From: an uncultured Pirellulales bacterium
GTDB lineage: Bacteria; Planctomycetota; Phycisphaerae; Sedimentisphaerales; SM23-30
Length of the DNA stretch: 64,000 nt
Direction: 5' to 3'
Assembly: GCA_964482555.1 (NCBI GenBank)
Contig: CAYZXY010000013.1
Coordinates: 1,225 to 65,224 of the forward strand
Shown: positions 22,672 to 54,780 of the stretch, in pieces
Layout of the letters: every line of letters starts with the position of its first letter
Numbering within the stretch: position 1 is the first letter of the stretch
Notes under the pieces: model-generated
Database searches by the model: none
What the model was told of the DNA's origin: nothing
The model's input: the letters and a program-made list of their open reading frames with translations, nothing else
Program-made: the position numbers and the translations under genes

Positions 22672-22776
22672 TATACCCGGTTGGGGAGAAAGCTTCCGGC
22701 AGGGCCGTTCGTAAGCTCTTCATCCGCAGATAATGACGTTCCGACAAAACGGATGTTTTCCATCGGAACGAGTATA
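22672..22776 (-). repeat. family-1 interspersed repeat, reverse orientation
   Basis: TATACCCGGTTGGGGAGAAAGCTTCCGGCAGGGCC...CGTTCCGACAAAACGGATGTTTTCCATCGGAACGAGTATA. Hairpin 1 is a perfect 8 bp. Confidence 0.9.
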
Positions 22777-22838
22777 TAAAAGAGTGATTTGTTTATACAT
22801 GTGTCGTAATGAAAACGCATTCAGGGAAGGGTTGAATT

Positions 22839-23384
22839 ATGAAGAGGTGTGCTGTACTTATGATCGGACTTTTTCTGGTTGCCCAACAGGGAGTGTCGGC
22901 AGATATACAGGAGGGGGATCTGCTCTTGAATCTTTCTGCCGGTTTTTCCGAGACCGAATACAAACTGATCGGTCGGGAAGAAGACAATGTTACGTTCATG
23001 ATCGGGGTGGAGTATTTCTTCTCGGATGCTTTTTCGCTGGGCATTCACGGTGCTCGCGACCACAGTGAACGGGATTTCGTCGAAAAAACGGGCTATTACC
23101 TGGGGATGGATTTCAAGTACCATTTCACGACGAGCCCGCTGGCGCCCTATTTCGGCGCCCAGATTAACTATGTCCGGGCAGATATTGACTATGACGGTTT
23201 TCTATTTCTCGATGATGATGAGGTGGGCGGGTTCATGTGGGGGCCGATTCTGGGCGTGAAATTTGACGTCAGCGAATATGTACTCCTGTTCTACGAGTAT
23301 CACTACCGCTCTTATGCCGGCGATATCGAGGATCATCTCGATGAAGAAAATAACCATATGGTGGGTGTGGCGTTTCGGTTTTGA
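22839..23384 (+). CDS. small outer-membrane beta-barrel protein
   Basis: Signal peptide MKRCAVLMIGLFLVAQQGVSA, an alternating amphipathic pattern, and a C-terminal ...VGVAFRF ending in Phe. Confidence 0.7.
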   Translation: MKRCAVLMIGLFLVAQQGVSADIQEGDLLLNLSAGFSETEYKLIGREEDNVTFMIGVEYFFSDAFSLGIHGARDHSERDFVEKTGYYLGMDFKYHFTTSPLAPYFGAQINYVRADIDYDGFLFLDDDEVGGFMWGPILGVKFDVSEYVLLFYEYHYRSYAGDIEDHLDEENNHMVGVAFRF

Positions 23385-23444
23385 AGATTCATTATTTAGA
23401 CAAAATCCGGATATAATTGTAATCAGCCATTCGTTATGCTAAAA

Positions 23445-23549
23445 TATGCTAAATCGGGTTGAAAGCTCCGGACAGGGCCGGGCGTAAGCTTTTTATCCGC
23501 AAATAATGACGTTCCGACAAAACGGGTGTTTTTATTCGGAACAAGCATG
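23445..23549 (-). repeat. family-1 interspersed repeat, reverse orientation
   Basis: TATGCTAAATCGGGTTGAAAGCTCCGGACAGGGCCGGGCGTAAGCTTTTTATCCGC...TTCGGAACAAGCAT. Confidence 0.85.
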
Positions 23550-23635
23550 CAATACCGCGGGTAGAATTGGATGAACCGGCGGGTATGGCATGAATTTGAC
23601 TCGTATAACTTTCTGTTCTTAAAGGATTTATTATT

Positions 23636-25186: not shown

Positions 25187-25248
25187 CAGTGACGCGGGAC
25201 ATCCTCTATTCCTTCTGGACATAACTTCCAGCATCATAAGGAAACAAT

Positions 25249-25743: not shown

Positions 25744-25763
25744 TCGCCATATATCCCTTTAAC

Positions 25764-25782
25764 CCCCGACGTGTAGTCGGGG
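25764..25782 (+). other. post-stop hairpin motif CCCCGAC-GTGTA-GTCGGGG
   Basis: 7-bp stem located 21 nt after the stop at 25743. The same arms recur at 44531-44551. No U tract follows. Confidence 0.5.
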
Positions 25783-25790
25783 TATCATAA

Positions 25791-25895
25791 TATACTCGTT
25801 CCCATTGAAAAGACCTGTGTTGTCAGAACGTCATTATGTGCGGATACAAAGCTTACGCCCGGCCCGGCCCGGAGCTTGCTGCCCGATTGGGTATA
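25791..25895 (+). repeat. family-1 interspersed repeat, forward orientation
   Basis: TATACTCGTTCCCATTGAAAAGACC...GCTTACGCCCGGCCCGGCCCGGAGCTTGCTGCCCGATTGGGTATA. Confidence 0.9.
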
Positions 25896-25989
25896 TTCTC
25901 AATTATCTGCGCCGATTGTAAACGGTCCGGCCACCCGCGAAAAGAAAAAATATGATGAGCCTGGCCCCCGGAGATGGTATAGTATCTGC

Positions 25990-26154
25990 ATGACGATAGA
26001 AATCACTTTTCTGGGCACGGGCACCAGCCAGGGCATCCCGATGATCGGCTGCGACTGCCAGGTCTGCCGGGCGGACGGGACGGCGTGGCCGAGTGCGTAT
26101 CCGAGTTTTGTGGAGGCGCGGGCGGCGGCGTATAATTTTTGGAGCTGGCAGTGA
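25990..26154 (+). pseudogene. truncated MBL-fold (PhnP-like) hydrolase remnant
   Basis: MTIEITFLGTGTSQGIPMIGCDCQVCR matches the N-terminus of about-250-aa MBL-fold hydrolases. Similarity is lost after about 26068, and the frame stops at 26154. Confidence 0.45.
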
Positions 26155-26463
26155 AGCAGACGCTTGCGTTTTTCGAGCCGGTGTGGTCGCATCTGCTGGA
26201 GAGGTGCGCGGGGACAATGGCGGAGGCGCTGCGGGTGTATATGGGGTTGCGGTATGGGATGAGCCTGGCGGGTCGGGAGCGGTTGAAGGGTACGAGTTGA
26301 AAGTTGGGGGTAATAGGTTATCATGGCAAGTTATAGGTTATAAGGCGGTGGTGCCGATGAAGTCTGGCCCAGATGTGTGACGAGTGATGAGTGACAAGAT
26401 TAAGTTCATTTGTTGGTGTGGGCATGGCCCACACTACTTTTACTTATTTAAGGAAGATATATC

Positions 26464-30508: not shown

Positions 30509-30592
30509 TGTTCCATCTATTCGTAGGATTATTCCCGTAATCGCCGGTCGTAACTGTTCAGAAAAATGGCATCCTTGGCAGTTATTGCATTT

Positions 30593-30696
30593 TATACCCA
30601 TTAGTTAGAAAGCTCCCGGCAGGGCCGGGCGTAAGCTTTTTATCCGCAGATTTATACGTTCCAACTAAACGGGACTTTTCAATCGGAACGAGTATA
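30593..30696 (-). repeat. family-1 interspersed repeat, reverse orientation
   Basis: TATACCCATTAGTTAGAAAGCTCCCGGCAGGGCCGGGCGTAAGCTTTTTATCCGC...CAATCGGAACGAGTATA. Confidence 0.9.
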
Positions 30697-30779
30697 AAAT
30701 AATCAGGCCGCTTTGTGATGCATGATTTGATATCCCTGAGATTATTGCCGATAGCCGGGGGTGAAACAGGAGAAAGATT

Positions 30780-31847
30780 GTGAGTTATTCTGGAAAAGTT
30801 CTTTCGTTGCTGAGTTGTACCGATCATGATGCCTTTAAACAATTTCTGAAGGACTCAACTTATCAACTACAGCATATGGAACCAACGCCAGATTCCTGGC
30901 TTGAGGACATCATCCGACGGGAATACTGGCTGAATGTGTGTCAAAACGACATCGATGCCGTTCTGGTGCCGGTTAACGCTGAAACCCTTAATGTGCTCGA
31001 AAAGTCCGCCCTCAGAAGCGGGCATCGCCACCCCGGCGCGTCCGGTTTCTGGGCCTGGCTGCCCACGGCGGTCATTGCGGTTCTTGGCGACGATTCCGTG
31101 CATCTGGCGGTTCAGGCTGCCAAGTGCGACTTTGACGGCATACTCTCCCAGCCTTATGAGTCAGATACAGTTTCCCGGCAGCTTTCCCTGGCCATACATC
31201 GCAGCGACAACCGCTATGCCCTGCACCGCCGATATCATAAAATGCACCATCTCTTCCATCGCATCAACCAGGACCGCCGGCATTTACGCGATAAAGTCGA
31301 TTTGCTCTGCCATGATCTGGTTCATTCCAACGCCCATTTGACCAATACGCTGCAGGAGATGTGCCGGGCTCACGATTTTTTGGGGAAAATCACCGGCGAA
31401 TTCGATCAGAAGTATATGCTGTATAAGGCGTTACGGATAATAAAACAGCGGTTTGCCGACTCCAGCGCCCTGATTTTTCTTTGTGATTCGAATGATTTTG
31501 AGGCCCATATATGCGGGGTGTGGGATGAACTGGAACACGACCCCGAAACCCTGGAAACGGGCTTAAAAACCTCCGTCATCACCGAAACGATTCTCAGCCG
31601 TCAAAGCCGATCTCTGGCCAATGTCGCACAGGCCGAGTCGCTTTCGCCAGGGGAAAAGGCGATTCTGGCCGGACTGAGCATCCTTACGCACCCGATTATC
31701 CTCGAGGACGAACTCATGGGTGTACTGGTCATTTATCGAGATGATAAAACACCGTTTGCCGCTGCCGATGCTGCCACCGCCCGGACATACCTCTATCCGC
31801 TGGCCCGGGCCCTTGACAATCTCCGGCGGCTCAAAGCCATTCTTTAG
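30780..31847 (+). CDS. hypothetical regulator: degenerate receiver-like N-terminus plus C-terminal GAF-like domain
   Basis: GTG start after an AGGAGAAAG RBS. The C-terminal region SALIFLCDSN...ELMGVLVIYRD looks GAF-like. The domain calls are tentative. Confidence 0.5.
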   Translation: MSYSGKVLSLLSCTDHDAFKQFLKDSTYQLQHMEPTPDSWLEDIIRREYWLNVCQNDIDAVLVPVNAETLNVLEKSALRSGHRHPGASGFWAWLPTAVIAVLGDDSVHLAVQAAKCDFDGILSQPYESDTVSRQLSLAIHRSDNRYALHRRYHKMHHLFHRINQDRRHLRDKVDLLCHDLVHSNAHLTNTLQEMCRAHDFLGKITGEFDQKYMLYKALRIIKQRFADSSALIFLCDSNDFEAHICGVWDELEHDPETLETGLKTSVITETILSRQSRSLANVAQAESLSPGEKAILAGLSILTHPIILEDELMGVLVIYRDDKTPFAAADAATARTYLYPLARALDNLRRLKAIL

Positions 31848-31963: not shown

Positions 31964-32134
31964 TTACATGGACAGCGCTTCGACCGGGCACTCATCAACG
32001 CATATGCCGCAATCGATGCAGGCTTCATCGTTGACGACGATTTTGTCATCTTCGACGCTCAGGGCTTCACTGGGGCAAACATCCACACACGCGCCGCAAC
32101 CGGTGCATTTCTCGAGATCAGCTTGTACAGCCAT
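31964..32134 (-). CDS. 2x[4Fe-4S] ferredoxin (56 aa)
   Basis: CTGCGACVDVCP and CIDCGICVDECP cluster motifs. A GGAGG RBS lies 5 nt before the ATG at 32134. The longer ORF to 32275 is rejected. Confidence 0.85.
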   Translation of the reverse strand: MAVQADLEKCTGCGACVDVCPSEALSVEDDKIVVNDEACIDCGICVDECPVEALSM

Positions 32135-32330: not shown

Positions 32331-32453
32331 GATCTAATCGAGTGAGAAGCTCCGGGTAGGACCATGCCTAACTGTTTTTTTTATAAGTAATTATGAATGG
32401 AGAAAGCGGGACGCGAAAGCCGCGTAAGCGAAAACTCAATCAGAAGCAGTATA
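32331..32453 (+). repeat. family-2 composite repeat (family-1-like half plus 58-nt module), pointing at proB
   Basis: ...GAGAAGCTCCGGGTAGGACCATGCCTAACTGTTTTTTTTATAAGTAATTATGAATGGAGAAAGCGGGACGCGAAAGCCGCGTAAGCGAAAACTCAATCAGAAGCAGTATA. The module aligns with 11610-11667. Confidence 0.75.
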
Positions 32454-32600: not shown

Positions 32601-33692
32601 ATGCGAAATTTCGACAAAATTAAACGAATCGTCATCAAGGTCGGCACCAATGTCCTCAGCAGGAACACGGGTGTCGATACCGATTTCATCGGTGTGATTG
32701 CCAGCCAGATTGCCGGGCTGGTCCAGGAGGGCAGGCAGGTCATCCTCGTTACCAGCGGCGCCGTTGGTATGGGCGCCGGGGCCCTGGGTCTGAAAAAGCA
32801 GCTTACCGAGATCAAAATGCGACAGGCATGCGCCGCCGTGGGCCAGGGGATTCTGATGCGGGAATACCAGGACGCCTTCAAACAATACGGCCAGACCGTT
32901 GCCCAGGTCCTGCTTACCAACCGTATCATGAGCTACCGAAAAAACTACGTCAACCTCAAAAATGCCGTCGAAACCCTCCTCAAGCTCAACGTTGTCCCCA
33001 TCGTCAACGAAAACGATTGCGTCTCCATCGAAGAAATCGACCTGGCCTTCGGCGACAATGACCGTCTCTCTGCCCTGGTCGCCTCAAAAATTGACGCCGA
33101 ACTGCTGATCGTCCTGACCGACGTCGCCGGTCTCTACAACGGCAATCCTCGCGAAAATCCCGATGCCAGGCTGCTTTCCGTCGTGCATGAAATTACGCCG
33201 GAGATTGAGGTCATGGCAGGTAAGCCCGGCTCGAAATACAGTACCGGCGGTATGGCCGCCAAGCTCAAGGCGATCCAGATCGCCGCCAACTCCGGCTGCC
33301 GGGTGGTTCTCGCTGACGGTCGTCGCAAGAATATCATTAATGACATCGTCGCCGGCGAAGACATCGGCACGCTTTTTCTGCCCAAACGCCGTCTCAGCAA
33401 CCGTAAACGCTGGATACTCAACAGCCTGCCGCAGGGCCGACTCGAAATCGACCCCGGCGCCGTGAACGCGCTGCTCAACAAAAAATCCCTCCTTCAGGTC
33501 GGCATCACCGACGTCATAGGCGACTTCCGACCCGGCGACGTCATCGAAATCGGTACCGTTGCCAAAGGCGTCACCCGGCTCGCCGCCCGCGACATCCGCC
33601 GCTTCCTCGACGACAAACTGAACAACAGCCACACCCCCGAAGCCAAACGCCAGGTCGCCGTCCATATCGACCACATCGTTCTGTATGTTTAA
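32601..33692 (+). CDS. proB: glutamate 5-kinase with PUA domain
   Basis: VIKVGTNVLS N-terminus, amino-acid kinase fold motifs, and a C-terminal PUA region (GDVIEI). Confidence 0.9.
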   Translation: MRNFDKIKRIVIKVGTNVLSRNTGVDTDFIGVIASQIAGLVQEGRQVILVTSGAVGMGAGALGLKKQLTEIKMRQACAAVGQGILMREYQDAFKQYGQTVAQVLLTNRIMSYRKNYVNLKNAVETLLKLNVVPIVNENDCVSIEEIDLAFGDNDRLSALVASKIDAELLIVLTDVAGLYNGNPRENPDARLLSVVHEITPEIEVMAGKPGSKYSTGGMAAKLKAIQIAANSGCRVVLADGRRKNIINDIVAGEDIGTLFLPKRRLSNRKRWILNSLPQGRLEIDPGAVNALLNKKSLLQVGITDVIGDFRPGDVIEIGTVAKGVTRLAARDIRRFLDDKLNNSHTPEAKRQVAVHIDHIVLYV

Positions 33693-35425
33693 CCCGCTAC
33701 CACATTTTCCACCGGCTGATTGTACAAAAACCGATGCTTGAATTGCTCGTTTCGCCCTTGGTTCGCCTTTTTGATCACCTCATCTCGCTCCGTCAATTCC
33801 CCATGGGCATACTGCTTCACTGACACCGGTCCCAGTCGTCCGCTCTTCCGTTTGGACGTGTACTCGATATTCAACGCCTCCAGCCGTCGGTCAATCTCGC
33901 CCGCCAACACCTCCAAACGCTCTGTCGGCCGCAATTTACGCAACTGCACCGCCACCCCGTACCTGGGCGGATCGCCCCATTCCGGCATCATGATAAACGT
34001 CTCCACCTCCATCCCGCACTCGTCGGCCGCCTCCCGTACCGCCCGCACCGCCTGATGTTCCGTCAGCTTTTCTCCCGTAATACTGCTTGTATGTGCTCCC
34101 TTTGACAAAAACTCAATCACCGGCGTCGTCCCCGCAAATCCGTTTACCCGCACGACATCGCCGATATGATACCGATACAACCCCGACTGATTGGTCAAAA
34201 TCAGATAATAATTCGCTCCCGGTTCCACCTCATCCGGCCGCAGTGTCACCAGCCCCTCCGGCAGCGTCATCAAATGACCGGATAGGTCCACACCCTCGAC
34301 CTCCGCTTCCGGTATGAACTCATACACATTCGCTTCGATGTCCAGAATCCCGCCGGGCGTGTTATCTTCCAGTGGAATCGACATACGCCCTTCGCTGGCC
34401 AGCAAACCAATATCCCGAATCGGCACATTGCCAAAGTAATCCCGCAATTGCGGCAGATACATCGACAGCGTACCGCCCGTCCAGTTCGCCAGAAATGAAA
34501 TATTCCAGTAGTGACGGGGCAGCAAACGTCCGTACTTCTCTAATATGCATTCAAGTTCCATTGCCCGTTGGGGCCGAGGATTCAGCCGGGATGAAAGCCC
34601 GCGTCGTATCCATTCCGGCACATTCTTTTCCACCCTCAGCGTGCCGTCGTGAATATCCCGTATTATCCGCATTGCTTCCTTTTCGGCCGTCTGGGCCAGC
34701 GTCAAAGTTGTACTGGGGTTTGCTGTGCTGATAAACGCAATGTCCTCACACAATGCCAGCCGCATAATCGTATAATACCGGTCCCCGGCTTCGGGAATAT
34801 ATGCCACCATGTTTGGCAACGCATAAAACTGCCGGACGACGGGTTTTTGATTCTTCGCCAACAATCCCGAAATCGCCCCACACGCAATCCCCGCCGCCGT
34901 CTTTTCCTGTTCATGCGGACTGGCAACCTGCAGAATTTTTCGGAACAGGGCGTCCGGGTGGTCCTGATAAGCCTGAATCCCCCAGATGTTCCATCCCCGT
35001 CGATAGCTTTGGGCAAACGCTTGTGTCACCGGGATATATTTAGCTTGCGATGTTGTGCCGCTGGTCAGAGCGAACATCAGCAATTTCTGGTCGGTTCCCA
35101 GCAATGCGTTTGGCCGGCCGTTTTTACAGTCGTTGATGTATGAGCCGTAATAGTCATACTGGGTCAACGGAAGTTGCCGGCGAAAATCATCATACGAAAC
35201 AATTCCCGCAAAACCGTGTCGGCGTCCAAAATCACTGTCCCGATGCGCCGCAATAATCCGGCACAGCAGTTCATTCTGGCCTGGGCGGCATTGGTGAAGT
35301 TTTTTCTGAAAGCGAGCGAGTTGCTTCCGGGCGTTGTGTGCGGCGATATGGCCGATGAGCCGCACCGCCGGTTTGAGCCATTTGCTGCTGGACCACTTGC
35401 TTGTCTTCATAATATGATACGCCAT
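33689..35425 (-). CDS. GH3 (auxin-responsive GH3-like) family adenylating acyl-acid amido synthetase
   Basis: 578 aa. LTSGTTSQAKYIP (acyl-adenylate motif) and YRYHIGDVV fit the GH3/ANL-like pattern from recall. The stop overlaps the convergent proB stop. Confidence 0.7.
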   Translation of the reverse strand: MAYHIMKTSKWSSSKWLKPAVRLIGHIAAHNARKQLARFQKKLHQCRPGQNELLCRIIAAHRDSDFGRRHGFAGIVSYDDFRRQLPLTQYDYYGSYINDCKNGRPNALLGTDQKLLMFALTSGTTSQAKYIPVTQAFAQSYRRGWNIWGIQAYQDHPDALFRKILQVASPHEQEKTAAGIACGAISGLLAKNQKPVVRQFYALPNMVAYIPEAGDRYYTIMRLALCEDIAFISTANPSTTLTLAQTAEKEAMRIIRDIHDGTLRVEKNVPEWIRRGLSSRLNPRPQRAMELECILEKYGRLLPRHYWNISFLANWTGGTLSMYLPQLRDYFGNVPIRDIGLLASEGRMSIPLEDNTPGGILDIEANVYEFIPEAEVEGVDLSGHLMTLPEGLVTLRPDEVEPGANYYLILTNQSGLYRYHIGDVVRVNGFAGTTPVIEFLSKGAHTSSITGEKLTEHQAVRAVREAADECGMEVETFIMMPEWGDPPRYGVAVQLRKLRPTERLEVLAGEIDRRLEALNIEYTSKRKSGRLGPVSVKQYAHGELTERDEVIKKANQGRNEQFKHRFLYNQPVENVVAG

Positions 35426-36542
35426 TCTCCTCGTTCGTCAGATTATCGCTGCCTTCCATCCCCGCAAACAACGCCAATGCCTTTCCATACAACAGTTTAT
35501 CAACAGCAGTTTTCCGGTGGATAAACTTATCGAAAAATGCCACCGATCGCAATGCATACAAATCGCGATGCACCAGCGTCGATTGATTGTGTTTGGCCTC
35601 CGGTGCCATCCAGAGATACCGCGGCGGCCGCGCCGCCTCATACAGCAGTTTCGCCTGATCCGGCCGGATATACGAATCCCGCGCGCCGTGGATAAAAAAT
35701 GTCGGCGTATCTTTCAGCTTCATAAGTGCTTTACGCGCCGAAAGAAACCGGCAATGAAACCGCCGCCACGCGACCTGCAACAGCAGCCACCGCAAAAACC
35801 GCCAGAACACCGGCGGATGATTTTCATACACAAATCGCACCCTCGCGAAGATATGCACCCACCGTTTCATAAACATTTCCAGCGTCGTATCATTGGAAAA
35901 CGCGCTGTCCGCCAGCACCGCCTTTACCAGTCCCGCTGAAAAGGGGCTGTCCGCCGCCAGAATTGCTGCACCCGCCCCCCGCGAAATCCCGAACATCCCG
36001 ATCTGAACGTCTAGTTCCCGCTCCCGAAACTGATCGTTCACATATGCCAGCGCCCCCAGGCAATCCGCCACCTCATGATTCGTGCACCACAAGCGCGGAG
36101 CATAATCCGGCAGCGATTCGCTTTTACCATGGGAGCGAAAATCGAAGGCAAAAATATCGTACCCCGCTCTCAGCAGCGGCATGCAATACCGCGACCAACT
36201 GTACATGTCGGCGTTGTACTCGTGACAAAAGATAATGACGCCTTTGGAATCCCCCTTCAGTATCGGTGCGTTGTTATCGAAATACAGCACATCACCTTGA
36301 TCCTTGATCATTGCCGGCGACAGAAACATTCCTCGCAGCCGCGTCCCGTCAAACGCCCGGAACTGGACTATATGGCCTTCCAGTTTCTGCTGATGTCGCA
36401 ACCCCAGAAAAGGCGGCGTATCCCGAAAAATATTCAGCATCAAACGGACATATTTCGCCAGAACCGCAACGATCCATAAGACCGTCAATACCGCCGCCAG
36501 GCCGCACAGCACAGGCCAGTAATGGAGCAATAACTGGATCAT
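35271..36542 (-). CDS. membrane-anchored alpha/beta hydrolase
   Basis: N-terminal TM helix. Nucleophile elbow GISRG. Starts 21 nt after the KS stop. Its 3' 155 nt overlap the GH3 start. Confidence 0.75.
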   Translation of the reverse strand: MIQLLLHYWPVLCGLAAVLTVLWIVAVLAKYVRLMLNIFRDTPPFLGLRHQQKLEGHIVQFRAFDGTRLRGMFLSPAMIKDQGDVLYFDNNAPILKGDSKGVIIFCHEYNADMYSWSRYCMPLLRAGYDIFAFDFRSHGKSESLPDYAPRLWCTNHEVADCLGALAYVNDQFRERELDVQIGMFGISRGAGAAILAADSPFSAGLVKAVLADSAFSNDTTLEMFMKRWVHIFARVRFVYENHPPVFWRFLRWLLLQVAWRRFHCRFLSARKALMKLKDTPTFFIHGARDSYIRPDQAKLLYEAARPPRYLWMAPEAKHNQSTLVHRDLYALRSVAFFDKFIHRKTAVDKLLYGKALALFAGMEGSDNLTNEENGVSYYEDKQVVQQQMAQTGGAAHRPYRRTQRPEATRSLSEKTSPMPPRPE

Positions 36543-36563
36543 TCCAGAATATCTCCGTCAGGG

Positions 36564-37892
36564 TTAATGTTGTTCAGGTAATTGACGTATGATGATTGTA
36601 TTATTCTGACCGCCAAAGCCAAACGAATTCGACATCACCGTTTTCAACAGCGCCGGGCGCGGTTCATTGGGTACATAGTCCAGATCGCATACTTCATCCG
36701 GCTGATGCAGATTGATAGTGGGTGGAATAACCTGATCTCGCAACGCCAGAACGCATGTTATCAGCTCGACCACGCCCGCCGCCGCGATCAGATGCCCCAG
36801 CATGCTCTTAACGCTGCTCACGGGAATATTATACGCCTGCTCGCCGAAAACGTCTTTAATCACCTTTGTCTCTATCGAATCGTTCTCCGCTGTTCCGGTT
36901 CCGTGAGCGCTGATATAATCGATATCCGTAATATCCAGACCCGCGTCCGCCAGTGCCTGCCGAACAGCTGCGATACCGCCGCGCCCCTCAATATGTTGAT
37001 CGGTTACCCGAAAAGCGTCGGCGGTACTGCCGTATCCGATCACCTCTGCCAGAATCGGCGCTCCCCGCTTCCGGGCCGTTTCGTAATCCTCCAGTATGAT
37101 AGCCCCGGCGCCCTCCGCCAGCACGAATCCATCCCGCGTCCGGTCAAACGGCCGCGATGACGTTTTGTAGTCGTCATTACGGGTCGACAGGGCGGTCAAA
37201 CGGTTAAACCCCGTTACCCCCAGCGGATGGATCATCGAATGCGTCCCCCCCGTAATCATGATATCCGTGTCGCCGTAACGAATCTGCTCCGTCGCCTCCC
37301 CGATCGCCTGCGTACTCGCCGCACAGGCCGTCAGACAACTCATACAGGGCCCGCGCAACTGAAACAGACGCGCCAGATAGCCGCTGGGTATATTCGGTTC
37401 CTGCTCCAGTTCCCGCCGCATGTCCATCCCCGAAAACGCGGTAGTCGCCCATGCCCCCCAGTCCATCTCATTTTCATCCGTATTCCACCCATCTATTGCC
37501 GCCTGCGAAAACGCCTTAAAATCTAACGGACCCTCCCCGGCGCCAAGATAAACGCCCACCCGGTCGCTGCCGGGAATCCTATTGGTTTGAGTTGCAGACA
37601 TCGGCATGGGCAGTCCCGCCTGGCGCCATGCCTGCAATGCCGCTGTAATTATAAACCGCGAATTGCGACCCGCCTGGCGAACTTCATCATGCAGATTCTC
37701 CGGTACGTTTTCGAGATGATCGTAATCCGCCACCTGCGCTGAAAACTGCGATGGAAATGTCCTCGCGTCGAACAGCTTCGTTAAAGATACTCCGCTTTCA
37801 CCGCTCAGCAATTTCCGCCAAACCTCATCAATGTCTCTTCCCAGCGGTGTCACCGCACCCATTCCCGTTATCACAACACGTCGTTTATCCAT
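36564..37892 (-). CDS. beta-ketoacyl-ACP synthase (KAS I/II-type, intact Cys-His-His triad)
   Basis: CLTACAAS (Cys), SAHGTGT (His), KSMLGHLIAAAG (His). Confidence 0.9.
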   Translation of the reverse strand: MDKRRVVITGMGAVTPLGRDIDEVWRKLLSGESGVSLTKLFDARTFPSQFSAQVADYDHLENVPENLHDEVRQAGRNSRFIITAALQAWRQAGLPMPMSATQTNRIPGSDRVGVYLGAGEGPLDFKAFSQAAIDGWNTDENEMDWGAWATTAFSGMDMRRELEQEPNIPSGYLARLFQLRGPCMSCLTACAASTQAIGEATEQIRYGDTDIMITGGTHSMIHPLGVTGFNRLTALSTRNDDYKTSSRPFDRTRDGFVLAEGAGAIILEDYETARKRGAPILAEVIGYGSTADAFRVTDQHIEGRGGIAAVRQALADAGLDITDIDYISAHGTGTAENDSIETKVIKDVFGEQAYNIPVSSVKSMLGHLIAAAGVVELITCVLALRDQVIPPTINLHQPDEVCDLDYVPNEPRPALLKTVMSNSFGFGGQNNTIIIRQLPEQH

Positions 37893-37908
37893 AATAATCT
37901 CTATCCTT

Positions 37909-37999
37909 AACTTTCGTATTTTTTTGATAACGCTTCGGCGTTCCGCAGGGCCATTTAAGCCCGACAGTATTATTCATTTTCGGATAAGTGATCGAAAAT
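37909..37999 (+). repeat. family-3 repeat in the 5' leader of the KS gene
   Basis: AACTTTCGTATTTTTTTGATAACGCTTCGGCGTTCCGCAGGGCCATTTAAGCCCGACAGTATTATTCATTTTCGGATAAGTGATCGAAAAT aligns along its whole length with 40064-40155. Confidence 0.85.
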
Positions 38000-38025
38000 C
38001 GCACTCTATCGCTTGTTAACTGATT

Positions 38026-38129
38026 TACACACGTTGCGATTGAAAATACGCGTTTTTTCAGAAGTAATTGTGTGCGAATAAAAAGCTTACACCCGGCTCA
38101 GCCCGGAGCTCTCTACCCGGTTGGGTATA
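38026..38129 (+). repeat. family-1 interspersed repeat, forward on + strand (reverse-sense relative to the minus-strand operon); overlaps the 3' end of the KS-like gene
   Basis: TACACACGTTGCGATTGAAAATACGCG...GAGCTCTCTACCCGGTTGGGTATA. The terminal palindrome encodes VYPTG-stop of the CDS 38113-39441. Confidence 0.9.
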
Positions 38130-39441: not shown

Positions 39442-39460
39442 AGGGCTTTCTCCTGGAATG

Positions 39461-39565
39461 TATCCTCGCTCTGAGTGATATTATCCGTTTTGTCAGAACG
39501 TAATTATGTGCGGATAAAAAACTTGCGCCCGGTCCTGCCGGGAGCTTTCTACCCGATGGGGTATA
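39461..39565 (+). repeat. family-1 interspersed repeat, forward on + strand; overlaps the 3' end of the dehydratase gene and lies 20 nt upstream of the KS-like start
   Basis: TATCCTCGCTCTGAGTGATATTATCCGTTTTGTCAGAACGTAATTATGTGCGGATAAAAAACTTGCGCCCGGTCCTGCCGGGAGCTTTCTACCCGATGGGGTATA. It encodes VYPIG-stop of the CDS 39549-40037. Confidence 0.9.
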
Positions 39566-40037
39566 CTTTGCCACCCGGAATATAACTTTTCAACAGCGTC
39601 ATAAAATTCGCATTAAACACGAAGTTTTCTTCCGGGAACTCCAGGCCCGCCATGTTCCGGTCGATATGACTGAACATCATGTTGATCTCCGCGATGAGTT
39701 TATCGCCGCAGCGTATCTCGCCGCTGATGGTTGCCGCTTCTTCGGCGATATTCTCAATGGTCGCTTCCAGGAAGAGTTGATCTCCCGGCCGAACAATATG
39801 ATGAAAAACGGCTTGGGCGATTTTGGCCAGAATGACCTTTTCCTTAAAGCCCCGGGCATGGCCGACCAGGATGCCGCCCGTCTGGGCCATAGCTTCAATC
39901 ATCAGCGAAGCGGGCATAATCGGGTACCCTGGAAAATGATCGTGCAGATGCTCTTCCGCCATGGTGACATTCTTGACGGAAACCGCTCGCTTGTCCGGTT
40001 CAAATTCTATAAATTTATCGATCCAAATCCACCGCAT
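39549..40037 (-). CDS. FabZ/FabA-like hotdog-fold beta-hydroxyacyl-ACP dehydratase
   Basis: HLHDHFPGYPIMPASLMIEAMAQTGG (catalytic His and Glu context). Confidence 0.85.
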   Translation of the reverse strand: MRWIWIDKFIEFEPDKRAVSVKNVTMAEEHLHDHFPGYPIMPASLMIEAMAQTGGILVGHARGFKEKVILAKIAQAVFHHIVRPGDQLFLEATIENIAEEAATISGEIRCGDKLIAEINMMFSHIDRNMAGLEFPEENFVFNANFMTLLKSYIPGGKVYPIG

Positions 40038-40063
40038 GAATTATGGTTACTCTCTACAAAGTT

Positions 40064-40155
40064 ACTTTCGCTTTTTTTGTGAGCGTTTTGCTGTTCCGCA
40101 GGGCCTTTTAAGCCCGATGATATTATTGATGACTTTCGAATAAGTGATCGAATAT
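40064..40155 (+). repeat. family-3 repeat in the 5' leader of the dehydratase gene
   Basis: TACTTTCGCTTTTTTTGTGAGCGTTTTGCTGTTCCGCAGGGCCTTTTAAGCCCGATGATATTATTGATGACTTTCGAATAAGTGATCGAATAT. Confidence 0.85.
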
Positions 40156-40254
40156 ATCAAACATATTTTATGTTGTTGATACAAAGGCCCTGTTAAGCCT
40201 TATTCAAAAATGGTATCACAGGAAAACGTGCGAAATCGCGCACCAGGATGCCGA

Positions 40255-40641
40255 CTAGATTTTATTTTCAATATATTTTACCACGGATTCCACCGTAAAT
40301 GAATCGCTGATCTTGTTGACATCCGGATCCTGTTCGAATGAACTGAAATCAACATGCGGCATGCTTTCCTTGAGCGTGGTCAGCCCGGCATCGGTCATAA
40401 TGCCGTCTTTGACATACTCATCATTCGACAAAATATTCTCCGCCGGAAACAACTCTTCCCGCGGAATTTTGATATCAAATGCTTTTTCCAGTCGAAATAC
40501 GATATCCAGAAAATCAATGCTTTCTGCGCCCAGGTCGCCCATCAGGGTCGCTTTGTTGGTGACTTCATCATCATCCACTCCCAAAGCATCGACCAGATTT
40601 TCCTGTACTTTGGCGAATATCTCTTCGCGGCTCATTGACAT
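40255..40641 (-). CDS. acyl carrier protein, unusually long (128 aa)
   Basis: Phosphopantetheine-site context DLGAESIDFLDIVFRLEKAF. An extension of about 50 aa follows helix III. Confidence 0.8.
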   Translation of the reverse strand: MSMSREEIFAKVQENLVDALGVDDDEVTNKATLMGDLGAESIDFLDIVFRLEKAFDIKIPREELFPAENILSNDEYVKDGIMTDAGLTTLKESMPHVDFSSFEQDPDVNKISDSFTVESVVKYIENKI

Positions 40642-40815
40642 AGTTCAGTAACCTCCACTTATATACCGTGTCATAATTAAATTGTAGCATGGGCATCTTG
40701 CCCGCGTTTATGGGACTGACGATTACGATGAATCGTCTCGATAACATTCGGACCTGGGCTGCGAACCCTTATTCTGACAAATCCGAACGCGGTTGTTTCT
40801 TCATGAAATTCGATT

Positions 40816-40920
40816 GATACGCGTTCCGATTGGTAATTCCCGTTTTGTCCAAGCGTAACTATGTGCGGACAAAGCCTTTACAACTGGCCCTGGCGGGAAT
40901 TCTCATACCCTTTGGGTATA
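40816..40920 (+). repeat. family-1 interspersed repeat, forward on + strand, same subfamily as 8890-8994
   Basis: GATACGCGTTCCGATTGGTAATTCCCGTTTTGTCCAAGCGTAACTATGTGCGGACAAAGCCTTTACAACTGGCCCTGGCGGGAATTCTCATACCCTTTGGGTATA. Confidence 0.9.
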
Positions 40921-40998
40921 GTCAATCGTGCGATTTTTCTGACTTCATTGATGTCATTTTGTCTCAAATAAAAACGAGGTTCCAGCTCCGTAGTACAA

Positions 40999-41466
40999 TT
41001 ACGCTCCCAGGAGTCTGGCACGCTGTCTCATCTCTTCAATCAACTGCCGGTCCATGCTCGCCATCTCCGCGTCCTCGTCAGCCAGATTGAAATGACTCAG
41101 TTTCAACCGGGCCGATACCATCGGCTGCTCGCCGACGAAGGCGTCGCCTTGAAAATCGCTTTCCTGGTCATCGATGGTTTTCGCCTGCAGGTCCAGCCGC
41201 AGAATATTTCCCGGCTTGACGAAACTTTTATATTTCACATTACGCGCTTCAGATAACACAATCATGCTGTGAGAAAAATCCTGGCTTACCCGGACCAGCA
41301 TCGCCGCGGCCTGCACCATCGCCTCGATCATCAAAACACCGGGCAAAACCGGAAACGAAGGAAAATGGTCCCCCAGATATTCTTCCGCCAGAGAGAGGGA
41401 TTTTATCGCCTGGATGCTCTTGCCGGGCTCCAGATTCGTTATTTTATCAATAAGAACAAACTTCAC
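40999..41466 (-). CDS. second FabZ-like hotdog-fold dehydratase
   Basis: YLGDHFPSFPVLPGVLMIEAMVQAAA. Confidence 0.85.
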   Translation of the reverse strand: MKFVLIDKITNLEPGKSIQAIKSLSLAEEYLGDHFPSFPVLPGVLMIEAMVQAAAMLVRVSQDFSHSMIVLSEARNVKYKSFVKPGNILRLDLQAKTIDDQESDFQGDAFVGEQPMVSARLKLSHFNLADEDAEMASMDRQLIEEMRQRARLLGA

Positions 41467-41563
41467 GTTCGCATCTTTCCTGAACTAATGAGTCAGTTGC
41501 TGTCAGTAACTCGTGCTATTGTAGTGGCCAGGGGATAGTTTTCCAGAGTTTTTTCCAGGAGAA

Positions 41564-42685
41564 TCAGCTTTTCATTTCCCCAGCCAGTTCGCAGAGCCGT
41601 TCGACTCCCATCTGGATCTTTTCGTTGCTGGTGGCATAGCTGATGCGGAAGTGGGTATTCCGTTCCGAAAACGCCGAGCCGGGCACGACGAGGACATCCT
41701 TCTTGACCGCCTCCATAATGAAATCGGACGCATGGCCATCAGGTGCCGGCACAAAGGCATAAAAAGCACCGTGAGGGCGTACCAGGTCGAAGGCGTCTTT
41801 CAGGCCATCATAGATCAAATCCCGCTTCTTGCGGTATTCATCAACGATAACGGTTAAATCGCTGTCCAAAACCTTTAAAATCGCTTTTTGGAACGGATGC
41901 GGCGCACAGACAAAGGTGTACTGCTGCAGCGAGGCCATGCGATCAAACAGCTCCTGATGAAACTCCGGGACCGCCAGATATCCCAGACGCCAGCCGGGAA
42001 TACCGTAGGCTTTGGAAAAGCCGCGCATAATCAGCGTGTTGTCATAATATTCTCCGATGCTTTTCACCGGTTCTTCATAACTGAAATCCATGTAAATTTC
42101 ATCGGAGATAACCAGCGGATTGGAGGGTTTAAGAACTTCCGCCAGTTTTTGCAGTCTGTCAGCGGGAATCACCTGGCCGGAGGGGTTTGATGGTGAATTC
42201 AGCAGAATAAGCTTGGTTTTATCGGTTATTTTTTCCGCGATCTTTTCCGGGTCAACCAGAAAATCCGGATACGTATCGACGTACACGCATTTCCCGCCCA
42301 GCAGATTTACAATATGCCGGTATATCACGAAATAAGGATCCGGGATAATGACCTCATCGCCGGGGTTGATCGTGGACATCAGAGTCAGTTGGATCGCACC
42401 GCTGACGCCGCAGGTAACAAGTATGTTCGGATTCTGCCAGTTGAGCTCCCGGGTGATTCGCTCTGCAATCGCCTCCTGAAGTTCCGGCAAACCCGTCGTC
42501 AGCGTATAAGTATGATGGCCATTATTGATGGCTTCTATGGCGGCATCCCGCAGAATTTCGGAAGGTCCAAAATCAGGTATACCGATACTGAAGTCGATCG
42601 GATCCTGCATTTTTTGTGCCAGTTGCCATACCTTACGAATACCGGAGGCATCAATTGATTTGACTCTTTCAGCGATTAAGTCCAT
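41564..42685 (-). CDS. class I/II pyridoxal-phosphate-dependent aminotransferase
   Basis: FSKAYGIPGWRLGY (PLP-lysine context). N-terminal region DFSIGIPDF is typical of AspC-like enzymes. Confidence 0.85.
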   Translation of the reverse strand: MDLIAERVKSIDASGIRKVWQLAQKMQDPIDFSIGIPDFGPSEILRDAAIEAINNGHHTYTLTTGLPELQEAIAERITRELNWQNPNILVTCGVSGAIQLTLMSTINPGDEVIIPDPYFVIYRHIVNLLGGKCVYVDTYPDFLVDPEKIAEKITDKTKLILLNSPSNPSGQVIPADRLQKLAEVLKPSNPLVISDEIYMDFSYEEPVKSIGEYYDNTLIMRGFSKAYGIPGWRLGYLAVPEFHQELFDRMASLQQYTFVCAPHPFQKAILKVLDSDLTVIVDEYRKKRDLIYDGLKDAFDLVRPHGAFYAFVPAPDGHASDFIMEAVKKDVLVVPGSAFSERNTHFRISYATSNEKIQMGVERLCELAGEMKS

Positions 42686-43045: not shown

Positions 43046-43223
43046 ATCTAGCTCCTGAATATAACTGTAACATCTTCACTTATAATTATTTACAATATTT
43101 CTGGGGCCGAGGCCCGCCTGGGTGTTTCGCTGATTTTGTATCAGGTAACAATCGTAGAACTTCGCATTCTAACACATATTTTTCGATTTTCTACCTTTTT
43201 TTAAGATTTTTTGTCAATGAATT

Positions 43224-43330
43224 TATACGGCTTCCGAGTGAGTTTCTCCGTTTTCTCCAACCATAACTGCTTACAAAGAAAACGGTTAGGCATTGACTTG
43301 TCCGGAGGTTTCTATCCGCTTGGGCAGATA
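43224..43330 (+). repeat. family-1 repeat, forward, degenerate
   Basis: TATACGGCTTCCGAGTGAGTTTCTCCGTTTTCTCCAACCATAACTGCTTAC...GGAGGTTTCTATCCGCTTGGGCAGATA. Confidence 0.6.
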
Positions 43331-43379
43331 GAGACTATTTGCTTGCCCGGCCCCAATAATTGCTATAGCATTTTCAGTT

Positions 43380-45318: not shown

Positions 45319-45326
45319 TTTTGTAC

Positions 45327-45354
45327 AGGAATCCGATAAGCGATTCCTTTTTTT
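45327..45354 (+). terminator. rho-independent terminator after tRNA-Ser
   Basis: AGGAATC-N8-GATTCCT followed by a T run. Confidence 0.7.
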
Positions 45355-50093: not shown

Positions 50094-50261
50094 GAAGCTA
50101 TTCTAATCATGTCAGCAAGTGCGGTCAAGCCTTTCTTAAAGGGTTGACAAGTGCAACTATATATATTATAAATCTTTATAAATATTATACCTCACCCGGA
50201 TATACCGGAATTTCGAATGATTTTCATTGCCGTTTTGCGTAAGTTTTAACTCGTGAGAGAT

Positions 50262-50365
50262 TCCACCCAATTGAGTAGAAAGCTTCTGGCTGAGCCGGGT
50301 GTAAGCTTTTTATACGCACATAATTACGTTCCGATAAAAGAGATATTTCAATCGGAACGAGTATA
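50262..50365 (-). repeat. family-1 interspersed repeat, reverse orientation
   Basis: TCCACCCAATTGAGTAGAAAGCTTCTGGCTGAGCCGGGTGTAAGCTTTTTATACGCACATAATTACGTTCCGATAAAAGAGATATTTCAATCGGAACGAGTATA. Hairpin 1 is perfect. Confidence 0.9.
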
Positions 50366-50444
50366 AAAGGAGTGTGAGGATTCCCGCCAGAACCAATCGG
50401 GAAAACGCTGTTTGAATGCGTATGAATTCGTTAAGGCAGGTTAT

Positions 50445-51584: not shown

Positions 51585-51613
51585 GCGAAAGGTGAACGAG
51601 AGGTAAATACTCA

Positions 51614-52060: not shown

Positions 52061-52079
52061 AGGGCCAATGCCTGACGCA

Positions 52080-53975
52080 TTATTTTTTCGGGGAACACGC
52101 TTCTTCGGGTGAGATTTTACCCAGAACGCCCAGTGCGATATTCACATTGCCAAAGGGGGCGCTGACGGCATAGCCAGCGACATGATCCTTGATCTTTTCG
52201 ATCATTTCCCGTGCGATTTCTATACCGATCAGGCGGCCTTCTTCCTTGGTCTGGGCTTTGGACATTTTCTCCAGGATTTTTTCGGGGACTAACACGCCGG
52301 GCACTTCGTTCGCCATGAATTCAGCGTTCTTATAGCTGACGAGCGGCCAGATGCCGGCGACTATGGGGATTTTATGATTTTTTGTTTCTTCCATGAAATG
52401 GATCAGCATGTCAGGATCGAAAACCGGCTGAGTGATGGCAAATTCCGCTCCGGCTTCGACCTTACGTTTGAAACGGTCGATTTCACGCGGCAGATCGGCC
52501 GCTACCGGATTAGCGCCGACGCCGAGAACCATGGAGAGGGGGGGGGTAAATGAATTCAATCCCAGGTCGATCCCCTGGTTCAGGTTTTTGCAGACCTGGG
52601 TCAGCCCGATGGCATCGAGATCGAAAACCGCGGTGGCATCGGGATATTCACCCAGTTTGGGCGGATCACCAGTCACGATCAGCATGTTTTTCAACCCCAT
52701 AGCCTCGCAGCCGAGCATATCCGCCTGCAGCCCGATGATATTGCGATCACGGCAGCAGACATGCAGAATGACTTCGATGTCAACATGCTGGTTGACATGG
52801 ATCGCGGTCACCATGGGCGACATGCGAGAACTGGCCCGCGGCCCATCAGGAATATTGATGGCATCTACGCCGTGGTCGGAACAAAATTTTGCCTTTTCCA
52901 CAATATTGGAGATGACTGCGCCGCGTGGGGGGGTGATTTCGATTGAGGCGACTTTTTCACCGGCGACGAGTTTTTGGGCCCATTTCGATCTTTTCTCGAG
53001 AGGGATGGTTTCCTGGGCGGCCGGCATTTCGACTTCCTTGACGGAAATCGATGCCGTATTCGTATCTGGAATCTGTCGCATTGCCTTATCCAGCGGATGT
53101 ATCACTTTAGCGATTTCGCTGATGTGTTCGGGTGTCGAGCCGCAGCAGCCGCCGATAATACGCGCTCCTTTTTCGAAAAACCGCTTGCTGTATTCCGCCA
53201 TGTATTCGGGTGTACACATGTATATTTTTCGGCCTTCGACTTCTCGCGGCATGCCGGCATTGGGTTGAACCGAGACCGGTTTATCCGTTGCCGAACGGAT
53301 AATTTCCAAACTGCTGAGCATGGACCCAGGGCCGATGGAGCAGTTCAGGCCAGCTACATTCACTGCCGGATGCCCGGCAATTCGCATAAAGGCGTCCTCG
53401 AGTTTCTGGCCGAAAATAGTTTCCTTAAATTCATTCGTGGTAATCTGAGCCACAATGGGGATATCGTATAGCGAAGCCGCCGTTTCCACCGCGATCAGAA
53501 GCTCATCCGGGTTGGAAAAAGTCTCGAAGATCAGGAAATCAACCTGTCCGTCCATCAGGCCCCGAATCTGGCGAATAAAGGCCTCGCGGACCTGATCCTC
53601 AGTCAGTTTGCCATAAGGCTGCATATGCGGACCCAGAGGGCCGATTGAGCCGCCTACCAGAACGCCATGATCTTCCGCTGCCTGCCGGGCCAGTTCGCCA
53701 CCGGCCAGGTTGATGGCTTCGACCTGATCGACCAGGCCGAATTTACTCAGTTTATACTGATTAGCCCCGAAGGTATTTGTCTCGATAAAATCGACCCCGG
53801 CGTCAATATAGGCTTCGTGCACCTTGCGTACCAGGTTCGATCGTGTCAGATTAAGCTCATCAAAACAGGTGTTGATAAATGCCCCCATTTGATAAAGCAT
53901 GGTTCCCATGGCGCCGTCGCCAATAAGGACATGTCGTTCCAGCCGTTCGAGAAATGTCTCTTTCTTAGTAGTCAT
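52080..53975 (-). CDS. bifunctional homocysteine S-methyltransferase / 5,10-methylenetetrahydrofolate reductase (YitJ-like)
   Basis: N-terminal Hcy-binding domain (LIGDGAMGT, GGCCGSTPEHI). C-terminal MTHFR barrel (IEITPPRG...). Confidence 0.85.
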   Translation of the reverse strand: MTTKKETFLERLERHVLIGDGAMGTMLYQMGAFINTCFDELNLTRSNLVRKVHEAYIDAGVDFIETNTFGANQYKLSKFGLVDQVEAINLAGGELARQAAEDHGVLVGGSIGPLGPHMQPYGKLTEDQVREAFIRQIRGLMDGQVDFLIFETFSNPDELLIAVETAASLYDIPIVAQITTNEFKETIFGQKLEDAFMRIAGHPAVNVAGLNCSIGPGSMLSSLEIIRSATDKPVSVQPNAGMPREVEGRKIYMCTPEYMAEYSKRFFEKGARIIGGCCGSTPEHISEIAKVIHPLDKAMRQIPDTNTASISVKEVEMPAAQETIPLEKRSKWAQKLVAGEKVASIEITPPRGAVISNIVEKAKFCSDHGVDAINIPDGPRASSRMSPMVTAIHVNQHVDIEVILHVCCRDRNIIGLQADMLGCEAMGLKNMLIVTGDPPKLGEYPDATAVFDLDAIGLTQVCKNLNQGIDLGLNSFTPPLSMVLGVGANPVAADLPREIDRFKRKVEAGAEFAITQPVFDPDMLIHFMEETKNHKIPIVAGIWPLVSYKNAEFMANEVPGVLVPEKILEKMSKAQTKEEGRLIGIEIAREMIEKIKDHVAGYAVSAPFGNVNIALGVLGKISPEEACSPKK

Positions 53976-54321
53976 AAACCTCCCTAAGCATTTTTTGTTT
54001 TTTTACCTCTTTTAATCATATATACATAGTATTAAAGAATTTACAAGTTAATATTCCAGAAAGAAGGGCGGTGGAGGCCAGTTTTTATAAAAAAAAAAGA
54101 GAAAAAATGATATTAGACGGCCCACATTATTTGCCAAAAATAAAAACCATGGTATAATTCATGTAGATGTTAAAGCCGATGAGTTTTAAGTAACAATGTA
54201 CAGCCAGTCTGGGATCGAGAGAGAGAGTGGACATATACATTTGTTAAGCGAAAAGGATGAAGGGCGCGAACGGCTTTAACATAAAGTGTCGGATGGGCTG
54301 GATACGGGAAGACAAGCAATC

Positions 54322-54426
54322 TATGCACGTACCGCTTGAAAATGCCCGTTTTGTCGGAACGTAATTATCTGCGGATATATATCTTACGCCCGGCCCTGCC
54401 GGGAGCGTTCTACCCCATTGGGTAGA
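54322..54426 (+). repeat. family-1 interspersed repeat, forward on + strand
   Basis: TATGCACGTACCGCTTGAAAATGCCCGTTTTGTCGGAACGTAATTATCTGCGGATATATATCTTACGCCCGGCCCTGCCGGGAGCGTTCTACCCCATTGGGTAGA. Confidence 0.9.
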
Positions 54427-54676
54427 AAAGCGGTTATTTTTATAAGCGTTTGCGCAATTTCTAAAACCTTGTTTACGCCGCATTCAGCGGCATTCTGTCG
54501 GGAAAAATAAGATTGTTGACGATCATTTGCCCCGGGGTTTTCTACTGAACCCCGGGGCTGTTTCTATTAGTCCCTGCGAGTCTTTTCCCAAAACGGGAAG
54601 TGGTTGTCTTTCTCATTCATTAAGTCCCGCATTTAATTAAAAATGCGGGCTAAACTTAATTGTCCCTTACGGGATT

Positions 54677-54780
54677 TATACGCGTTCCGATAGAAAATAC
54701 CTGTTTTTCGGAACGTAATTATGTGCGTATAAAAAGCTTACGCCCGGCCTTGCCGGGAGCTTTCTACCCAATGGGGTAGA
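54677..54780 (+). repeat. family-1 interspersed repeat, forward on + strand
   Basis: TATACGCGTTCCGATAGAAAATACCTGTTTTTCGGAACGTAATTATGTGCGTATAAAAAGCTTACGCCCGGCCTTGCCGGGAGCTTTCTACCCAATGGGGTAGA. Confidence 0.9.

Follow-up and report, generated by a model that had tools for sequence, protein, structure and literature searches.

Family-1 is a non-coding repeat of about 105 nucleotides (nt), many copies of which lie between the genes of a 64-kb stretch of planctomycete DNA, which we refer to as the window. Where a copy is flanked by two genes on the same strand, it shows a preferred orientation: eight of nine such copies carry the family-1 consensus on the mRNA-sense strand. This orientation bias is real but statistically borderline. 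Selection rather than chance is the most likely cause of the excess of eight to one, and at about even chances we favor the view that family-1 resembles a transposable element of the miniature inverted-repeat type (MITE) whose orientation was filtered in transcribed spacers at or soon after insertion, and whose copies have drifted neutrally ever since. In the following, we describe the copies and their surroundings, and weigh this view against its alternatives.

Orientation of family-1 copies relative to genes

A profile hidden Markov model, built from 13 clear copies of the repeat, returned 19 significant copies or fragments in an nhmmer search of the window. These include, at the same positions and on the same strands, all nine copies that an initial annotation of this DNA had placed between co-directional genes, and all open reading frames (ORFs) flanking them are supported as real genes by Pfam. 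Three sense copies lie between plus-strand genes and have the consensus on that strand: 22663-22782 in the spacer of a UDPGP and an OMP beta-barrel gene (nhmmer E=3e-35), 23436-23557 between the OMP gene and G6PD, and 30587-30705 between the genes of an HDOD histidine kinase and a GAF protein. Five others lie between minus-strand genes and have the consensus on the minus strand. They are found at 38017-38132 between two KAS genes, at 39452-39571 between a FabA-like and a KAS gene, where 10 nt separate the end of the copy from the KAS start, at 40806-40927 between a FabA-like and an ACP gene, and at 54312-54435 and 54668-54789 in a single spacer of 881 nt. The last of these, 67 nt past the stop codon of an acetyl-CoA hydrolase gene, is the copy nearest to the consensus (92%). 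The single exception, 25783-25904, has the consensus on the minus strand and is thus antisense to its plus-strand surroundings, a metallophosphoesterase gene on one side and a gene remnant followed by a PPIase gene on the other. As had been noted, the remnant beside it is genuine: over its first ~29 residues, the product of the ORF at 25990-26154 (+) is the N-terminus of an MBL-fold hydrolase (PDB 6b9v, E=7e-6; PhnP 3g1p, E=0.0025), after which it continues into unrelated sequence.

The class of copies flanked by two same-strand genes was picked after inspection, and the tally comes from one 64-kb window. Counted by copy, eight sense orientations out of nine correspond to a two-sided binomial P=0.039; counted by spacer, with 54312-54435 and 54668-54789 taken together, seven out of eight correspond to P=0.070, and Fisher's test of gene strand against element strand gives P=0.048. 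The initial annotation had called the bias strong. The pattern itself is real within the window, but given the small sample, these P values and a class chosen post hoc, that adjective overstates it. A degenerate copy at 32334-32411 (+) was considered as a tenth member of the class and rejected, as a minus-strand gene for a 2x[4Fe-4S] ferredoxin of 56 residues (31964-32134; Fer4, E=2e-18), which is also present in the related genome L089, separates it from the plus-strand GAF gene (30780-31847). Because the ferredoxin gene makes this spacer divergent, with proB (+) on its other side, the co-directional count stays at 8:1.

The main rival explanation is a sampling accident, in which orientation is random genome-wide and the observed eight of nine reflects luck combined with a class defined after the fact. 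The modest P values fit this explanation, as do the about even orientations of divergent-spacer copies relative to their nearest gene and a substitution pattern that is free of strand-specific constraint. On the other hand, two further cases point in the same direction as the eight, although neither can be strictly classed: a copy just past the window end, on the short-read contig L002, is sense to the plus-strand gene that it follows at ~45 nt, and a 5' fragment covering the hairpin 1 region (16278-16312, -) is sense to a LysM gene (-) that ends 22 nt away in a convergent spacer. Likewise, among copies at most 100 nt from the 3' end of one gene, nine are sense and one is not (P=0.021, again a post hoc count), and comparable elements with documented orientation effects are known (PMC2229807). 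We consider a sampling accident rather unlikely. Relative to the upstream stop codon, copies are positioned from -20 to +78 nt.

The proposal that the bias tracks gene direction rather than the DNA strand is borne out by the nhmmer coordinates. Along the window, the element strand alternates with the local gene blocks (-, +, -, +, -), except for the antisense copy at 25783-25904: it is minus from 8.9 to 16.3 kb, plus from 21.0 to 32.4 kb (bar 25.8 kb), minus from 38.0 to 43.3 kb, plus at 50.3 kb, minus from 54.3 to 59.4 kb and plus again at ~65 kb. So many switches within one 64-kb window are therefore not the effect of one replication fork. In pneumococcus, dispersed repeats do mirror the coding-strand bias, at ~61% (PMC3049150), but an orientation set by the replication strand, with the link to genes arising secondarily through the co-orientation of genes and replication, has next to no probability here and is rejected.

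Divergent spacers are the most frequently occupied by family-1 (6 of 9), compared to 8 of 28 co-directional and 2 of 9 convergent ones. This is the opposite of the enrichment in convergent spacers that terminator-like repeats show elsewhere (PMC3049150, PMC2718517), but the numbers are too small to build on. The copies in these spacers differ in their integrity: degenerate or partial copies make up five of the eight in divergent spacers and none of the nine in co-directional spacers, which are without exception full length (Fisher P=0.009, post hoc). This could fit retention downstream of genes or, equally, a faster turnover of promoter regions.

Structure of the repeat

The MAFFT consensus of family-1 coincides exactly with the sequence quoted in the initial annotation, TATACCCAATTGGGTAGAAAGCTCCCGGCAGGGCCGGGCGTAAGCTTTTTATCC...TCGGAACGAGTATA. 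Its ends read 5'-TATAC...GTATA-3', and its outer ~28-30 nt may represent imperfect terminal inverted repeats (TIRs), with 17 matches over 30 positions when the left end is compared to the reverse-complemented right end. Perfect symmetry is restricted to the outermost 5 bp (TATAC/GTATA), which is weaker than in most MITEs and comparable to ERIC or SPRITE elements; the terminal TA...TA is present in most copies. In the predicted fold of the consensus (minimum free energy -38 kcal/mol, z=-4.1), a terminal helix of 5 bp is combined with a long, bulged hairpin in the middle, which we call hairpin 2, and a 3' hairpin. The base of hairpin 2 has a competitor in a small 5' palindrome, TACCCAATTGGGTA, or hairpin 1. 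The open frames of family-1 have only repeat-derived ORFs as homologs, and the element is non-coding and shorter than 300 bp.

Identity to the consensus ranges from 75 to 92% among individual copies, whose relationships are star-like. Local duplication was considered as the origin of neighboring copies with the same orientation and was rejected, as adjacent copies are not each other's closest relatives. The sole distinct pair, subfamily B, consists of the copies at 8882-8999 (8886) and 40806-40927 (40812), which are 90% identical to each other and adopt a different predicted fold: neither retains the U run or the lower stem of hairpin 2, and both have gained a perfect long-range helix of 11 bp, GAGAATTCCCG / CGGGAATTTTC. 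The protein P0123, encoded on another contig, is associated with this subfamily.

Insertion history and capture of gene ends

Three related metagenome-assembled genomes (MAGs; L089, L090 and L092) share the gene order of the window, and their orthologous spacers measure 23-143 nt and contain no family-1 copy. The spacer between the histidine kinase and GAF genes, for instance, has 54 nt in relatives and 272 nt in the window, and that between the metallophosphoesterase and PPIase genes 143 and 721 nt, respectively. Within the lipid cluster described below, the spacers grow from 23 nt in both relatives to 107 nt (FabA-like to KAS), from 56 and 28 nt to 220 nt (KAS to KAS), and from 25 and 108 nt to 357 nt (FabA-like to ACP). 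Judged by this comparison, the family-1 copies at these sites are insertions relative to the gene order of the relatives.

At two sites, family-1 has become part of the neighboring gene. The C-termini of the FabA-like protein, VYPIG* (39549-39566, -), and of the first KAS, VYPTG* (38113-38130, -), are both encoded by the element: they represent the translation of element positions 1-17 together with a preceding G, in the frame that reaches the earliest stop codon of family-1. As these tails replace the C-terminal tails of the relatives' proteins, the element must have inserted into the last codons of both genes. Its TAG (positions 15-17) now serves as the stop codon of the FabA-like gene, inside the copy at 39452-39571, and of the first KAS gene (38113-39441), inside the copy at 38017-38132. 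Since the stop codon is supplied by the element, at least the first 17 nt of these two copies are transcribed and translated.

The bias might also have been set by the act of insertion. An HUH/Y1 enzyme, similar to the transposases associated with repetitive extragenic palindromes (REPs), the RAYTs, could move single-stranded DNA by recognizing GTAG together with hairpin 2, and its product would be ligated into the non-template strand exposed by transcription. The consensus does have a GTAG (positions 14-17) directly before the 35-nt palindrome of hairpin 2, which is the layout of GTAG-tagged REPs, and such REPs are reported in Planctomycetes, mainly downstream of genes (PMC3733652). A bias of this origin would also go together with copies that are not selectively maintained. 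However, the unit is 105 nt long with TA termini and TIR-like ends, rather than a palindrome of 20-40 nt, only 6 of 13 copies have kept the GTAG intact, neither a second, inverted REP nor a conserved target sequence adjoins the 5' end, and Pfam finds no Y1 transposase in the window. Moreover, the single-strand transposons known so far follow the direction of replication, not that of transcription. We accordingly hold such an insertion preference to be very improbable, marginally more so than any of the transcription modules considered below.

Hairpin 2 and the RNA level

On the sense strand only, family-1 has a G+C-rich hairpin (ΔG -8 to -13 kcal/mol) directly before a run of five to six U; on the antisense strand, the sequence after the middle hairpin is UUUCUACCC. 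The tail score is -4.8 in sense versus -3.9 in antisense orientation, and an internal loop of 4 nt interrupts the stem of hairpin 2 close to its base and adjacent to the U run. The initial annotation had described hairpin 2 as being followed by UUUUUAU in the favored sense. This holds for the consensus and for five of the eight sense copies, such as 23436-23557, but the other three read UCUUCAU (22663-22782), GCUUUGU and UAUAUAU (54312-54435). A stable hairpin with at least five U is likewise kept in these five of the eight sense co-directional copies and in 7 of the 13 full copies altogether, the remaining six having lost the U run. Judging from these features, a role of the sense copies as weak terminators, attenuators or 3'-end structures is possible.

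A simple terminator scan of the window never called the family-1 hairpin; convincing terminators were found after two tRNA genes and after the PPIase and ferredoxin genes. The two tRNA terminators (994-1019 and 45327-45348) are textbook hairpins followed by U7-8. Shuffled sequence, however, is at least as rich in terminator-like sites as the window as a whole, and intrinsic terminators seem, on this count, to be used sparingly in this genome.

The initial annotation had also raised the possibility that the element acts at the RNA level, but the copies lend no support to a role that is being maintained. In a covariation test, 79.5% of the cells at paired positions remain paired, against 78.1% after shuffling, and pairs are broken by the majority of changes. 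Likewise, derived G:U pairs (~19) are as numerous as derived A:C mismatches (21) when the two G:U pairs of the consensus and one ambiguous pair (alignment columns 15-60) are left out of the count. If selection acted on a structure in one of the strands, G:U should be the more frequent of the two. The raw excess of G:U (45 vs 21) was considered as a mark of strand-specific RNA selection and rejected, as it stems largely from the two G:U pairs of the consensus itself. Folding energies do not differ between sense and antisense, conservation is flat along the element (81-91%), and the U run is frequently lost, as described above. We also tried an RNAalifold consensus structure, which collapses to four pairs. 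On this evidence, the divergence among family-1 copies looks neutral, with no sign of upkeep as a functional RNA.

A promoter inside family-1 was considered as well and rejected, as neither strand has a consistent sigma-70-like match; a -35-like TTTTCA near the 3' end forms promoter-like matches with flanking sequence in two copies. These two matches are among the points that speak for a maintained module, in which a sense copy would end the upstream transcript and then either restart transcription or be gated by the terminating ribosome, and would thereby serve as a portable operon insulator or attenuator. The intactness of all co-directional copies next to the decay of most divergent ones agrees with this notion, and in the two operon-internal copies that supply a stop codon at positions 15-17, the inferred footprint of the terminating ribosome would extend over the 5' arm of hairpin 2. 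Nonetheless, there is no covariation, neither hairpin nor U run surpasses the remainder of the element in conservation, no consistent promoter is present in family-1, and subfamily B has no U run and folds differently, yet its co-directional copy is also sense. We consider a maintained module of this kind improbable. Slightly less probable still is a mobile, self-contained transcription module that would have colonized operons by being nearly harmless in one orientation only, and that would act as a weak terminator, its 5' arm masked by the ribosome on the element's TAG. If this were nevertheless true, read-through into the next gene would depend on the translation of the preceding one, and operon polarity would be rewired across a planctomycete genome.

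Origin of the bias

We favor the following course of events. Family-1 would have spread through intergenic regions and into the very 3' ends of genes in a Sedimentisphaerales-like planctomycete, where it would now be decaying neutrally. Copies between same-strand genes would be transcribed together with their neighbors, and the two orientations would not be equivalent as RNA: in the sense RNA only, a bulged, G+C-rich hairpin right before U5-6 could act as a weak terminator, a pause site or a 3'-end structure. Antisense insertions in transcribed spacers would then have been removed more often, or sense insertions would have been tolerated or even mildly useful, and no continuing selection on the structure would have followed this initial filter. 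The hairpin-plus-U module is probably the best candidate for the feature seen by selection, because it is the sole strand-specific feature that we found. The initial annotation had offered an RNA-level role or orientation-dependent counter-selection as alternatives. Of these, counter-selection survives best, as the neutral-looking substitutions provide no support for a maintained role.

Several points weigh against this course of events. The first is the tally itself, with its small sample, its borderline P values, its post hoc class and its origin in one window. Then, the candidate module is wanting in the very copies it should explain: the U run is missing in three of the eight sense copies, and the module is conserved no better than the rest of the element. 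Four sense copies lie within clusters that are tightly packed in relatives (FabA to KAS, 23 nt; KAS to KAS, 28-56 nt; histidine kinase to GAF, 54 nt) and are probably co-transcribed there, and efficient termination is therefore hard to reconcile with their location. Efficient terminators should be depleted inside operons, as has been argued for repeats of Pseudomonas fluorescens (PMC2718517) and for SPRITE (PMC3049150). We also found no antisense-RNA feature that would make an antisense insertion harmful. As for mobility, neither an autonomous partner, that is, a full-length insertion sequence with matching ends, nor a transposase was detected by Pfam in the window, and the expected target-site duplication (TA) is not demonstrable at nucleotide resolution; the closest relatives are only ~60-70% identical in protein, and their empty sites are not alignable base by base.

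Further copies and neighboring features

The remaining copies lie in convergent and divergent spacers. The second member of subfamily B, a full copy at 8882-8999 (-), is found in a convergent spacer, where orientation is uninformative. The divergent spacer between a fucosidase gene (-) and znuA (+) contains three minus-strand copies: a full copy at 10896-11015, a degenerate one at 11165-11266 (nhmmer E=2e-9) and a full but diverged one at 11492-11611, which is 75% identical to the consensus. Other divergent spacers harbor a 5' half copy at 21035-21089 (+), degenerate copies at 32334-32411, mentioned above, and at 43215-43331 (-), a full copy at 50253-50372 (+), 39 nt 5' of a Sua5/LMWPc gene (+), and a degenerate partial copy at 59318-59386 (-).

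In the fucosidase/znuA spacer, a solo 5'-end fragment of family-1 is located at 10866-10892 (TATACACAATTGGGTAAAA on the plus strand), and the flank preceding it, CCAATCGTTTTT, is the same as that of the inverted copy at 11492-11611. This sharing of flanks suggests an inverted segmental duplication or recombination between copies. A second repeat of 35-63 nt, with the core AGCCGCRTAAGCGAAAAC, occurs at 10803-10865 (-), 11605-11667 (+) and 32418-32452 (+), just 5' of the fucosidase gene, znuA and proB. It always faces the gene and abuts family-1 sequence, and over 63 nt, the copies at the first two sites show 92% complementarity. This repeat could represent a promoter or leader common to the three genes, or else a further mobile module.

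The minus-strand cluster at 33689-42685 encodes an aminotransferase, a FabA-like protein, ACP, a further FabA-like protein, two KAS, an alpha/beta hydrolase and a GH3-family ligase, an order that is kept in Sedimentisphaerales MAGs. By its gene content, it probably represents an unusual acyl or aminolipid pathway. Within it, a stretch of ~80 nt occurs twice with ~80% identity (37919-37999 and 40072-40155), directly 5' of the second KAS and of the FabA-like gene. Nothing in the relatives' short spacers corresponds to it, and it may represent a promoter or leader that has been duplicated. Finally, a very strong G+C hairpin of 12 bp (GCCCCGGGGTT...AACCCCGGGGC) is found at 54529-54558, between the two copies of the 881-nt spacer. 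Although both flanking genes are on the minus strand, the T-rich tail of this hairpin is on the plus strand.

Distribution and significance

Outside its host, family-1 proved elusive. A degenerate 30-nt pattern had no hit in 185,579 species genomes (596 Gb) or in viral contigs, and a single chance hit, with no extended similarity, in JGI metagenome contigs. No match was obtained with a family-1 copy as BLAST query against plasmids, nor in Rfam, even at E<=1, and the repeat was not found in 1.38 Mb of related loci. A profile of both translated open frames retrieved three repeat-derived proteins. One of them is encoded by the window, which is part of a 68,291-nt contig of an NCBI MAG, and the others by two further NCBI contigs of 12.9 and 44.4 kb, so that copies exist on at least two contigs besides this one. 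The G6PD and KAS proteins of this organism, in turn, are at best 59-66% identical to anything else. By these comparisons, the host is a Sedimentisphaerales-like planctomycete and family-1 is specific to its lineage.

Within the host, the repeat leaves its mark on sequence assembly. Logan short-read contigs of the same organism (L002, L003, L085, L086 and L087; SRR7048221/22/24) break inside family-1 at nearly every end examined, as expected for a high-copy repeat; L085, for instance, begins within the copy at 23436-23557 and L002 within that at 54668-54789. These contigs extend the window by ~1 kb on its right side and by 0.65 kb on its left, where they again end within copies, and the copy that L002 adds just beyond the window end is the one considered above.

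The host belongs to a little-studied lineage of anaerobic planctomycetes, and family-1 makes up ~3% of the window sequence. It breaks short-read assemblies of this organism, and masking or annotation of the repeat would be advisable for MAGs of this lineage. It also adds five residues to each of two lipid-synthesis proteins and makes operon spacers four- to ten-fold longer than in related genomes.

Comparison with known systems

Small dispersed repeats with similar properties are known from several bacteria, and the ERIC elements, or IRUs, of Enterobacteria, especially Yersinia, are among the closest parallels. In Yersinia, according to what De Gregorio and colleagues are said to have described in 2005, one orientation is preferred near stop codons. 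Like family-1, ERIC is non-coding, has a length of ~100-130 nt, short TIRs (7 contiguous bp) and TA termini, and adjoins or overlaps stop codons; it is co-transcribed with its flanking genes, and an orientation-dependent effect on mRNA has been shown for it (PMC2229807). By contrast, the two have no sequence similarity, belong to different phyla and differ in predicted structure, ERIC forming a single long hairpin and family-1 three, of which the middle one is terminator-like. Furthermore, an RNase E mechanism and a TA target duplication are features demonstrated for ERIC.

SPRITE, from pneumococcus, is a dispersed repeat of ~105 bp with very short TIRs that is found near gene 3' ends, and it combines a long stem with a subsequent U-rich tract, unlike the normal terminators of its host (PMC3049150). 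As with family-1, neither a target duplication nor a partner insertion sequence has been identified. However, SPRITE is AT-rich, shows no sequence similarity to family-1 and is enriched between convergent genes, whereas family-1 occupies two of nine convergent spacers.

The Correia/NEMIS elements of Neisseria and the pneumococcal RUP share with family-1 a small size, TA termini, folded transcripts, insertion in operons and at gene ends, and fusions with coding sequences (PMC2229807, PMC3184786). They differ in having longer, well-conserved TIRs (24 bp in Correia, 9 bp in RUP) that match known insertion sequences, or in carrying IHF sites. The GTAG-tagged REPs, reported in the PVC superphylum, likewise have GTAG directly 5' of a G+C-rich palindrome and lie downstream of coding regions (PMC3733652), but they are units of 20-40 nt, often arranged as inverted dimers and linked to RAYTs, whereas family-1 has a fixed length of 105 nt, two further hairpins and TA ends.

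Taken together, an orientation-dependent filtering of co-transcribed insertions has been described already for ERIC and SPRITE, and family-1 opens no new class of mechanism. If its bias holds genome-wide, though, family-1 would provide a clear example, from beyond Proteobacteria and Firmicutes, of a miniature repeat that persists or is lost according to which strand is transcribed.

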